From Escherichia coli O157:H7 (GTDB lineage Bacteria > Pseudomonadota > Gammaproteobacteria > Enterobacterales > Enterobacteriaceae), in the NCBI RefSeq assembly GCF_013167455.1, contig NZ_CP038328.1: a stretch of 64,000 nucleotides of DNA; one strand, written 5' to 3'. This document shows positions 51,001 to 54,000 of the stretch, piece after piece. Made by a program: the position numbers. Every line of letters starts with the position of its first letter. The first letter of the stretch is position 1.

Positions 51001-54000
51001 CCCCCCATGCAGCAACGCTTGCCAGCCTAACTCCTGCGACATTGGCAAGCTTTGTTTTGCTGCCAAAAAACGCTATAGCATCAATTTTCAACATATCGAA
51101 ACCCTTAGATTTTCCTAAGGAAACTAGATCGTAGAGAAACCTAAGTCAAGAAAAATTAGAATTACCTAATATGAAAAACGAAACCTTCGGTGCTCGCCTC
51201 TTATACAGGCGAAAAAAATTAAAACTGTCTCAGGCCGCATTAGGTAAGCTGGTCAAAGTGGCTCACGTAACAATTTCTCAATGGGAAAGAGATGAAACAC
51301 AGCCAGCGGGGAAGAGATTATTCGCACTGAGCCAGGCGCTTCAGTGCTCGCCGACTTGGCTTCTTTTTGGAGATGAAGATAAGCAACCAGGCGAACCGAT
51401 CCCAGATAATCAGCCAGTCAATCTGACAGAAGATCAAAAAGAGTTGCTTCAACTGTTCGACGCACTGCCTGAGTCAGAGCAAAAGGCTCTGTTGTCAGAG
51501 ATGCGTGCTCGAGTTGAGAATTTCAACAAACTTTTTGAAGAACTACTCAAAGCTCGCAAAAGAAGCGCAAATAAATAACCCCCCTTTTTTTCGCAACTCT
51601 CTGTAATAAAAAGCACAAACTTTCAAATACTTGTGTTTTTTACATCAAGAAGCTTAGGTTTTTCTACACAAAAAGCTTGACCATAACTCTTAGGCTATTC
51701 TAAATTCCACTCATCAAGACACCGCACGGTGTTCTCAGCAAACAGTTCCGCTACCCGGCGTTAAGGGGAAGCAGAGGATTTCTCAGTGGGCGAGTCAAAC
51801 ATCAGAATGGAAGGCGTCCAGGGATCAGCAAAGAAACAGCGATGGCGCTTTATATTGATATCAGCGCCATTGCCGGACAGGTAAGAGTTATCAGAGCGGT
51901 AACTAAGCGGTATGCGCCTTTACTTCAGAAAGTCTCTGGTGAGTGCACCGAAGATATTGTCAACGATTTCGTCATCGAACTGCGAGGACTCATCTTCAGT
52001 TACAAGGTGACCACAATTTTTGCAGATGGCTCCCGCGAAACTGTCAGAGCCCTGCGGCTTAAAGGATGTGTCAAAGACTTAGCCACCACATTCTGGGCAA
52101 GAAAACTTGATTGTATTCATAACCAATTTCCTCTCGAGTAACAGACCCCTCAGAGGATACCACCTCGCCTGACGTGGTTAAAAAGCAGGCAACGCTAACC
52201 ACAAGGAGCCGACATGCAGAAACGAGACCCCGTCATCATCGCGCCAGACTATACCGATGATGAACTTTATGAGTGGATGCACCAGAAAATTAAGGCGGTG
52301 CAGGACCTGAAATGGGCCAATGAAGCCAGGGCTAAGCAGGCTGAAAATCTGTCCGCTCTGGAGCAGGATATCACCAATCTGGAAAAAGCAGCGGCATTAA
52401 GCATTGCCAGAATGATTACATACCCACGTTAATAGCTAACCAACGAGGCTAATAATGGAATTTAAAGATTTACCAACGCCATTACAGGAAATGGCATCGA
52501 ATATAGTTCGTTCACAACTGGCTACTCTTGACCTTAGTACCGCAGAAAAAGAAACCATCGATAATATGGTTCGTAATGTGCGCAATGCTTTTTCTGGGCT
52601 ATATGGTTCTGATAATCAAAAGCAGGAAAGCGATGTTAATAAACGGGTAATTTCTGTTTGCGTGAATGGCCATGTTCTTTCATCAATCAAAACAGAAACG
52701 GCGACAGTCTTCGATTGCCTTTGCATTGTACAGAGCCTTGTTGATGCCCTGTTTCGTTCAGTGAATTTAGAAAATGATGCAAATCTGCGAGGGCGCATAA
52801 TAGCACATCCATATGCACATACTTTAGGCTCTGTGGATATCAAAGATCCCACAAATCTTTAATGAAATAGTTAACGCGAATTGTACTTGCTCTTTCGGTT
52901 GCTTTCAGAATACGCGTTGAAACTGCTGGCGGTAATTTGGTATTCCATTTATTAAAATCATGCCCGGGAAAGTACTCTTCGAAAATACTTTTAACTGCAG
53001 ACTCGCCTATTGAAATGCTGCTTACCATGCGATTTTGATAAAGGCATTTAGCAATAAGAGTTGATTTTAACATTCACCCTCCTGAGGGTTGGTAATTAAG
53101 GAGTTCTCCACGGGTGAAGTGGAGTGCGTGCGCCGGACACGGGTGAACATCCGGCACTGACAGTTTACTGAAAGGATATTTCTCTGAAAAGTCAGAGCAT
53201 AACGCGAAAGCGCACGGCGAGGTTGCTGGTTCATAGATAGCCTGTCGTTAAATTTTCGTCGACCGTGCGCTTCCGGTTGTGGCACTCCGCGAAATGGCGC
53301 AGCGGTAAGTATGGCGGGGTTATTCCTTCCCCGTTGAGGACACCGGGTTGTCAGGTTGACCATACGCTTAAGTGACAACCCCGCTGCAACGCCCTCTGTT
53401 ATCAATTTTCTGGTGACGTTTGGCGGCATCTGTTTGCCCATGAACTGATGTCCGCCCTTTTTAAAGTGAATTTTGTGATGCAGTGAATGCGGCTAAGCGC
53501 ACGCGGAACAGTTAAAGCTAAAAACAGTGTTATGGGTGGATTCTCTGTATCCGGCGTTAATTGTTAACTGGTTAACGTCACCTGGAGGCACCAGGCACCG
53601 CATCACAAAATTCATTGTTGAGGACGCGATAATGGAAACGTTATTACCAAACGTTAATACGTCTGAAGGTTGTTTTGAAATTGGTGTCACTATCAGTAAC
53701 CCTGTATTTACTGAAGATGCCATTAACAAGAGAAAACACGAACGGGAGTTATTAAATAAAATATGCATTCTTTCAATGCTGGCCCGTTTACGTCCGATAC
53801 AAAAAGGATGCTGGCAATGAATACAGCATTTGCACTTGTTCTGACAGTTTTTCTTGTTTCCGGAGAGCCAGTTGATATTGCAGTCAGTGTTCACAGGACA
53901 ATGCAGGAGTGTGTGACTGCAGCAACCGAACAGAAAATTCCCGGTAACTGTTACCCTGTCGATAAAGTTATTCACCAGGATAATAACGAAATCCCGGCAG

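Follow-up and report, generated by a model that had tools for sequence, protein, structure and literature searches.

Introduction

DicF is a model prophage small RNA (sRNA), linked in enterohemorrhagic Escherichia coli (EHEC) to virulence and cell division. In E. coli K-12, the dicBF operon has been described as having a long stretch that is not translated and that includes dicF (PMC5069750), RNase E and other processing steps have been reported for the sRNA (PMC5069750, PMC9438474), and the two ends of the molecule serve different targets: ftsZ and manX pair with the 3′ region, xylR with the 5′ end (PMC5069750, PMC5861419). Another leader RNA relevant here, put, spans about 70 nucleotides (nt) that form two stem-loops (PMC9378689). 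We describe a dicF locus in a 64,000-nt stretch of the E. coli O157:H7 contig NZ_CP038328.1 (assembly GCF_013167455.1), hereafter the window, in which an earlier note made from the sequence alone had pointed out a DicF-like sRNA behind a GC-rich leader. Coordinates refer to the window, and features lie on the plus strand unless stated otherwise. With a probability of roughly 0.85, the locus as a whole is best explained as the dicF gene of an Sp9-type lambdoid O157:H7 prophage, situated within the early-left (dicBF) operon, in its conserved untranslated leader. Both dicF and the leader were already known; the allele is a variant that standard annotation has overlooked and that probably has a reduced target set.

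A variant dicF allele inside a conserved leader

Aligned to the K-12 genome (NC_000913), positions 53088–53820 are colinear with prophage Qin from the end of ydfC through dicB. Identity is 97–100% over 53088–53426 and again from 53452 on, the sole block of difference being 53427–53451. The locus is 100% identical to that of O157:H7 strain PV15-279, and the gene order around dicF is the same as in K-12 (dicC-dicA ... dicB, ydfD) and in Sakai Sp9. The sRNA itself, delimited by the K-12 alignment, Rfam and folding, is an Sp9-type allele of DicF at 53407–53457, with a U-run to 53462. It consists of a seed (53407–53421) and a terminator hairpin (53422–53456) whose loop and upper stem are divergent (53427–53451), followed by the U-run (53458–53462). 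The sequence tttctggtgacgtttggcgg at 53407–53426 is identical to nt 1–20 of K-12 DicF at 20 of 20 positions. From there the body departs from K-12, at 53427, 53431 and 53436–53451, and has a new loop, UUUGCCCAUGAA; the central divergence that the earlier note had described is thus confirmed. The terminator hairpin, said to have been kept, is indeed present: GGCGG/CCGCC at its base (53422–26/53452–56) and the U-run are retained, and the fully paired hairpin folds at −17.3 kcal/mol (z = −3.1) ahead of UUUUU, as compared with −15.9 kcal/mol for the K-12 stem.

In a 900-nt scan, the Rfam DicF model (RF00039) matches 53408–53457 with 43.5 bits (E = 4.8e-8), which is under the gathering score of 48 bits. 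Routine Rfam scans at the default cutoff therefore miss the allele, and DicF is not among the hits of a gathering-threshold Rfam scan of the window. The alignment to K-12 and other prophages and the Rfam scan, both proposed in the earlier note, have now been run, and sequence, structure and synteny together (the seed, the Rfam E-value, flanks of about 97% identity, and the presence of dicB and ydfD) bear out the DicF-like assignment. Among 5426 complete E. coli genomes, 289 carry the allele, most of them O157:H7/O55:H7, which makes it rarer than the K-12 type (3966 of 5426). In 287 of the 289 it is at least 99% identical, and viral contigs contain it in 5 of 122 copies that match the seed. Counts of DicF copies in EHEC rest on near-identical sequences, and annotation at the Rfam threshold omits the window allele. 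A sequence in Aeromonas phage AP1 (MT713136, 254 kb), at 249906–249991, shares 86% identity with 53397–53480, the DicF end.

The leader spans 53088–53406 and is about 97% identical to the K-12 gap between ydfC and dicF; the K-12 alignment places its start at 53088 rather than at 53100, the position proposed earlier. Nor is it the peculiarity of this locus that it had appeared to be, as 4355 of the 5426 complete E. coli genomes have it. In K-12 the leader begins directly after ydfC, with dicF 340 nt past that gene; since nothing is annotated in between, the alignment means that the leader without open reading frames (ORFs) seen in the window is the K-12 leader too. Its high GC content (0.52–0.57 vs 0.38–0.42 in the flanks) and the lack of any plus strand ORF of at least 60 amino acids (aa) between 53074 and 53632 were both noted correctly, and the whole leader region folds with z = −3.0.

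The 5′ part of the leader, module A (53088–53275), is about 97% identical to K-12 and is predicted by RNAalifold from 16 diverse copies to form hairpins at 53106–53124, 53132–53155 and 53182–53197 and a long hairpin at 53208–53272 (gcgcacgg...ccgtgcgc) with a hypervariable apex; only three pairs of these helices covary. The inverted repeat quoted in the earlier note (I2, 53205–53217/53263–53275) is real, with 92% complementarity. Module B follows (53276–53390, see below). The last part, at 53391–53406, is an A/U-rich linker (CGCCCUCUGUUAUCAA|U), identical to that of K-12, which carries the putative RNase E site that would form the DicF 5′ end.

Alternative cassettes at the dicF position

At least ten different seed/terminator cassette types stand after module B in different prophages. 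They include canonical DicF, the window allele, a short UUUUCUGGUGAUUC-GGCGGAAAUGGAUAUCCGCC form, several types with unrelated 'seeds', and the version in phage P1; one cassette carries the K-12 body behind a different seed and scores 61 bits with the Rfam DicF model. With a single leader accompanied by at least ten cassettes across prophages, the dicF position behaves as an sRNA swap site, and the DicF of the window is one allele of a polymorphic slot, which makes the single-locus view of the earlier note incomplete. Other cassettes combine the stem of the window allele, GGCGGCAUC.G/CUGAUGUCCGCC, with different loops and seeds, so the variant looks like the product of cassette exchange, not decay. 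The slot amounts to a natural experiment in sRNA evolution. In two of the viral contigs (L294, ~8090–8200; L316, ~7610–7720), a long terminator hairpin encloses a Shine-Dalgarno sequence and an ATG (…CCAGGAGGAGCGAAGATAATGTTCTGCCG…), an arrangement that suggests a tiny ORF in the terminator.

Predicted target pairing

The 5′ 20 nt had been taken to be the DicF targeting region. This holds for xylR, but the validated pairing sequence for ftsZ and manX is the 3′ region (PMC5069750, PMC5861419), so the divergent body removes target-pairing sequence and not neutral scaffold. The predicted duplex with ftsZ −24..+8 has an energy of −19.4 kcal/mol for K-12 DicF (nt 8–48) and −11.8 kcal/mol for the window allele (seed only), which is weaker than the shuffle mean of −15.7 kcal/mol, and the cassette with the K-12 body behind another seed reaches −21.5 kcal/mol; these energies are modestly discriminating, K-12 DicF itself beating only 87% of ftsZ shuffles. 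This test, centered on the ribosome-binding site, was used in place of long-target ftsZ duplex folding of the DicF alleles, which gave no discrimination. Complementarity of the 3′ region to the ftsZ ribosome-binding site, the division-inhibitor trait of DicF, is missing from the window allele.

Taken together with the published mutants, the duplex energies suggest that the window allele is probably not an ftsZ repressor, and that it would lack both ftsZ and manX targeting. The 5′ seed is unchanged, and pairing with 5′-seed targets such as xylR should therefore persist. An allele with the seed but without the ftsZ/manX part would give O157:H7 a DicF paralog with a narrower or different set of targets.

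A covarying fold upstream of the cassette

Module B (53276–53390, ~115 nt) is a four-helix junction supported by covariation, RNAalifold and a covariance model. Its outer stem pairs 53276–83 with 53383–90 (GUUGUGGC/GCUGCAAC), and hairpins lie at 53287–53302, 53315–53333 and 53345–53381. Pairing of 53309–14 (GUAUGG) with 53360–65 (CCAUAC) could add a pseudoknot, which stays a candidate because it shows one compensatory change only, in phage P1. Copies of the module were gathered from viral contigs, phage records and two enterobacterial genomes. In a MAFFT alignment of 22 representatives, 94.5% of cells are paired and 9 pairs are changed on both sides, against 3.0 ± 1.3 in shuffles (0/500) and 0–4 in slid-partner controls. 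In a model-fitted alignment of 43 distinct copies, which is biased towards structure by construction, the corresponding values are 96.1% and 12 double-changed pairs, against 2.4 ± 1.2 in shuffles (0/500) and 0–6 in slid-partner controls. RNAalifold independently recovers the helices, and the window obtains 149.7 bits with the covariance model. Because G-U pairs are present, the fold is specific to the plus strand. The nucleotides of the junction and loops are invariant while the stems covary; the conservation of the loops is partly imposed by the search pattern, yet it is shared by the copies that BLAST found in P1/P7, Salmonella F1055 and Actinobacillus pPE4. A scan of genome contigs with the 16-mer CAGGTTGACCATRCGC gave 120 loci, nearly all of them chance matches in unrelated phyla, with only E. 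albertii and Citrobacter relevant.

Module B has no Rfam match at E ≤ 10 in the window, nor in 11 related loci, and neither the fold nor the cassette polymorphism turned up in Rfam or in the literature examined. A tRNA-like element was considered and rejected, as ARAGORN found no tRNA or tmRNA in 52900–53750 and Rfam gave no tRNA match at E ≤ 10. The result is an RNA fold backed by covariation that is present in K-12 and P1 yet not in Rfam, and a testable candidate for a role in processing or transcription control. Loci without the interior of the module (L332, L334, L336, L352, L365 and others) have an outer stem that closes on a pentaloop, GGTTGTGAATAACAAC or GGTTGTGGCAATCAGCTGCAAC. Positions 3484–3960 of Actinobacillus phage vB_Apl-pPE4 contain module B, a tandem-duplicated seed/terminator cassette and an E. 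coli-type spacer upstream of kil, an arrangement resembling the leader of an enterobacterial lambdoid phage, although the recorded host is not one that would be expected.

The spacer and the neighboring genes

Between dicF and dicB lies a spacer (module D, 53467–53614), a domain closed by a stem of 19 base pairs (bp) (53467–85/53596–614; inverted repeat I1, 95% complementary). By analogy, this stem is likely to be the RNase III site that yields the longer DicF form. The spacer is weakly STnc100-like (Rfam RF02076; 32.5 bits, E = 3.8e-5, below the gathering score of 47 bits), and the same element is located upstream of tciA in P1, where it is preceded by a motif that matches the boxA-like one of the window at 52888–52901 at 15 of 17 nt. 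Two stretches complement the DicF seed region: AACGUCACC in the spacer (53574–82) is a perfect complement of seed nt 6–14 (window 53412–53420), and CCAAACGU in dicB codons 6–8 (53647–54) complements nt 10–17 (window 53416–53423). Such complementarity could serve cis-masking or autoregulation. Since 9-nt matches at this scale are expected about once by chance, and the spacer motif is kept in loci with other seeds, we do no more than record it.

Downstream, dicB (53632–53820) encodes the cell-division inhibitor (Pfam DicB PF05358, 1.7e-37) and is followed by a ydfD homolog (53817–54008; Pfam DUF1482, 3.7e-25, and the Sakai annotation) and by a gene for an 823-aa exonuclease (54101–56572). Upstream, the prophage immunity region has a DicA/C2-type repressor gene (51171–51578; Pfam HTH_3 4.3e-14, P22_Cro 3.2e-13), in the same order as K-12 dicC-dicA and Sakai Sp9, and a divergent Cro/DicC-like gene of the P22-Cro type (50867–51094, minus strand). 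A ydfC-like gene of 72 aa (52214–52432; phrog_1744) aligns at its 3′ end with the end of K-12 ydfC. Between it and the leader, the K-12 alignment reveals an insertion of ~640 bp (52455–53087) that holds a 135-aa plus strand ORF and a convergent 77-aa minus strand ORF (52840–53073), homologs of Sakai ECs_1763/ECs_1762 that belong to PHROG families of unknown function. The promoter of the 77-aa ORF would have to sit within the leader.

Sakai carries the same DicF allele in prophage Sp9, but with a deletion of 85 nt corresponding to window 53204–53288. The deletion is flanked by two CGCGAAA direct repeats and removes the long leader hairpin together with the 5′ strand of the module B outer stem.

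Elsewhere in the window, Rfam matches at gathering level mark an AgvB anti-GcvB sRNA (39591–39650), STnc100 (39652–39860, minus strand) and tRNAs (39973–40046 and 40130–40202, minus strand). The cluster at 39591–40202 corresponds to a convergent sRNA pair at a prophage moron site, as described for EHEC. An ALIL pseudoknot (the frameshift element of the IS3 family) and a sok antitoxin RNA, at 45329–45445 and 46142–46291 and both on the minus strand, are signs that the prophage harbors an insertion sequence (IS) element as well as a toxin-antitoxin locus of the hok/sok type.

Alternative explanations

Apart from the modest discrimination of the duplex energies, several observations weigh against our reading of the locus. 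High identity inside the clonal O157:H7 lineage tells little about selection. The papers examined on Hfq and RNase E crosslinking in EHEC do not mention DicF, and no expression, end-mapping or Hfq data were located for the allele. The interior of module B is missing in 21 of 30 loci chosen by their downstream spacer, and Sakai Sp9 is without the 5′ strand of the outer stem, which together mean that module B is dispensable for having a cassette. One might suppose that the divergent DicF is a decaying, non-functional remnant of a cryptic prophage, in keeping with its score under the Rfam cutoff, the leader deletion in the Sakai version of the prophage and its confinement, for the most part, to one clonal lineage. 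However, the changes form one block between flanks that are 97–100% identical, the replaced stem has all its bases paired and matches that of K-12 in stability, the seed, U-run and RNase E linker are all intact, and the use of the same stem with other loops and seeds elsewhere points to cassette exchange; we regard decay as improbable. We give even less credence to the proposal that the leader is conserved because it encodes protein, whether one or more small proteins on the plus strand or a 124-aa ORF on the minus strand (53067–53441). An AAGGAG at 53099–53104 does precede short ORFs, the longest small-ORF candidate has 36 aa and a GTG start (53265–53375), the minus strand ORF overlaps the region, and some phage records annotate a 'hypothetical protein' here. 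Yet the conserved small-protein genes that the earlier note had named as a competing account of the leader were not found. Among homologs the GTG ORF ranges in length between 5 and 68 aa, its frame shifts so that the C-terminal halves are out of frame, and we reject it as a conserved small ORF. Indels of 1, 4 and 8 nt within the module B hairpin at 53315–53333 also argue against coding, a stop distinguishes the first short ORF of K-12 from that of the window, and the compensatory helix substitutions include G-U pairs that would be mismatches on the minus strand. The 124-aa ORF would moreover cross dicF itself, and K-12 RefSeq and most of the 4355 leader-bearing genomes annotate no gene in the leader. 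Of the contents once envisaged for the leader, the structured RNA therefore stands, by virtue of the covariation over 53276–53390, and the small ORF does not.

For the role of module B, we rank a processing scaffold first, weakly, and control of termination second. The latter proposal holds that the leader or module B is a cis-acting RNA that sets readthrough of the DicF terminator, as a put-like element, a Nus/boxA-type antiterminator, an attenuator or a riboswitch, and with it the ratio of terminated sRNA to dicB/exo/xis/int mRNA; we consider this doubtful. The broader claim, that module B and its flanking helices constitute a so far undescribed class of cis-regulatory RNA, found in temperate enterobacterial phages and governing passage of the early-left terminator, strikes us as unlikely too. 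If it were true, an RNA class spanning K-12 Qin, P1 and active lambdoids without N would decide between the cassette sRNA and the kil/dicB, recombination and excision genes. What makes terminator control attractive is the leader position and the absence of a detectable N. In the active phages mEp460, cdtI, F1055 and pPE4, module B always belongs to the early-left leader, after the repressor gene and before kil/dicB-exo-xis. In P1 it starts ~40 nt after the C1-controlled Pban promoter, with an intrinsic terminator within 30 nt of the module. In cdtI, a near-consensus promoter (11/12 matches) with a palindromic operator is found ~280 nt upstream of module B, and the ~600-nt leader comprises a boxA-like motif, module B, seed, terminator and long hairpin, after which comes the operon's first ORF; the candidate promoter of the window (51677–51706) is about 1.6 kb upstream of the module. 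As with put, then, module B in P1 (Pban) and cdtI (PL-like promoter) follows an early promoter and precedes terminators, and, as with riboswitches and attenuators, a conserved folded domain directly precedes an intrinsic terminator. Invariant junction and loop nucleotides beside covarying stems, and boxA-like GUGCUCUCA/UGCUCUUU ahead of module B in several leaders, point the same way. No N-like gene was found in the 143 loci with module B by BLASTP with four N sequences, a search that detects N weakly, nor in the window by Pfam/PHROG (ORFs at 51842–54008).

Other evidence speaks against terminator control. The 21 spacer-selected loci without the module B interior still have the terminator and the downstream genes, Sakai Sp9 again does without the 5′ strand of the outer stem, and N is detectable in only 2 of 24 loci lacking module B (from a wider set of 167). 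A link between module B absence and N presence was rejected: the counts, 2/24 without and 0/143 with module B, are suggestive, but the cases are too few. An N gene lies upstream in two loci without the module B interior and in phiSTEC1589-Stx1c. HK022, where put was defined, shows no resemblance, with no blastn match of the leader and none of the module B model, and a put-like identity was rejected on these grounds. Module B is, besides, a four-helix junction and not two stem-loops, and it occurs once per locus with no rightward-operon partner (no second, rightward copy in 83 loci). A switch model, in which the P1 3′ strand pairs with the 5′ half of the terminator, was rejected as energetically unfavorable: the forced antiterminator pairing CCGCUG:UGGCGG has −87.7 kcal/mol, about 10 worse than the minimum free energy of −97.8 kcal/mol. 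Manual comparison across cassette types, automatic parsing of terminators being unreliable, gave no clear three-way covariation, and none is evident between the two strands of the forced pairing. Finally, the motif at the boxA position of the window (UGCGCUUCC) deviates from the consensus; the rrn boxA, for comparison, is UGCUCUUUAACAA. An exact boxA-like TGCTCTTTCGGTTG is present at 52888–52901 on the plus strand, antisense inside the 77-aa minus strand ORF. Degenerate boxA-like forms precede module B in the window (53266–53279), cdtI and F1055.

Proposed expression and processing

Returning to the locus as dicF within the dicBF leader, a course of expression can be sketched largely from K-12. 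Relief of the DicA-like repressor would lead to rightward transcription through the leader, RNase E would cut in the A/U-rich linker just 3′ of module B, at about 53406, and the intrinsic terminator, whose hairpin and U-run are observed at 53422–53462, would end an Hfq-type sRNA of ~51–56 nt. Transcripts that read through would be cut by RNase III in the 19-bp spacer stem and then serve for the expression of dicB, ydfD, the exonuclease, xis and int. We weakly favor a part for module B as a stable 5′ structural boundary or scaffold, which would fix the RNase E release point of whichever cassette follows.

Comparison with described systems

K-12 DicF shares with the window allele its first 20 nt, the GGCGG/CCGCC terminator base, the U-run, the leader and downstream spacer (~97%), and the dicB/ydfD neighbors. 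The two differ in that ~20 nt of loop and upper stem are swapped, among them the CUCCG anti-Shine-Dalgarno element used for ftsZ pairing, and in length (53 nt in K-12, 51 nt in the window); the K-12 locus is also without the 640-bp two-gene insertion that parts the ydfC-like gene from the leader. In phage P1, the 'dicF-like region' of the ban operon leader (NC_005856, 68791–68892) contains a module B 76.5% identical to that of the window, two of its hairpins and the candidate pseudoknot showing compensatory changes. Features in common with the window are a position just downstream of a repressor-controlled promoter and, after the module, a brief single-stranded stretch and then an intrinsic terminator. 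Unlike the window, P1 has no DicF seed, a different terminator hairpin and an outer stem built from unrelated sequence, and its downstream genes are tRNAs, tciABC and ban where the window has dicB.

The put element of HK022 (putL/putR), a processive antiterminator that suppresses termination through the zinc-binding domain of the RNA polymerase β′ subunit, resembles module B in being a structured RNA that precedes terminators, in an early operon leader under repressor control and with no recognizable N. It differs in having no sequence or covariance match and in folding into two stem-loops where module B forms a four-helix junction, and module B is single-copy and optional in many leaders. A precedent for the slot is provided by the AsxR/AgvB anti-sRNAs of EHEC lambdoid prophages (PMC4104026), in which a conserved position and scaffold likewise carry variable seeds. 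Their site is a different one, the moron site downstream of PR′, where the AgvB copy of the window is found, and the division between constant and variable parts is also different: in AsxR/AgvB the 3′ 42 nt are conserved and the 5′ 14–18 nt vary, whereas variation in the dicF slot extends to the hairpin body as well as the seed, and it is the flanking leader modules that are conserved.

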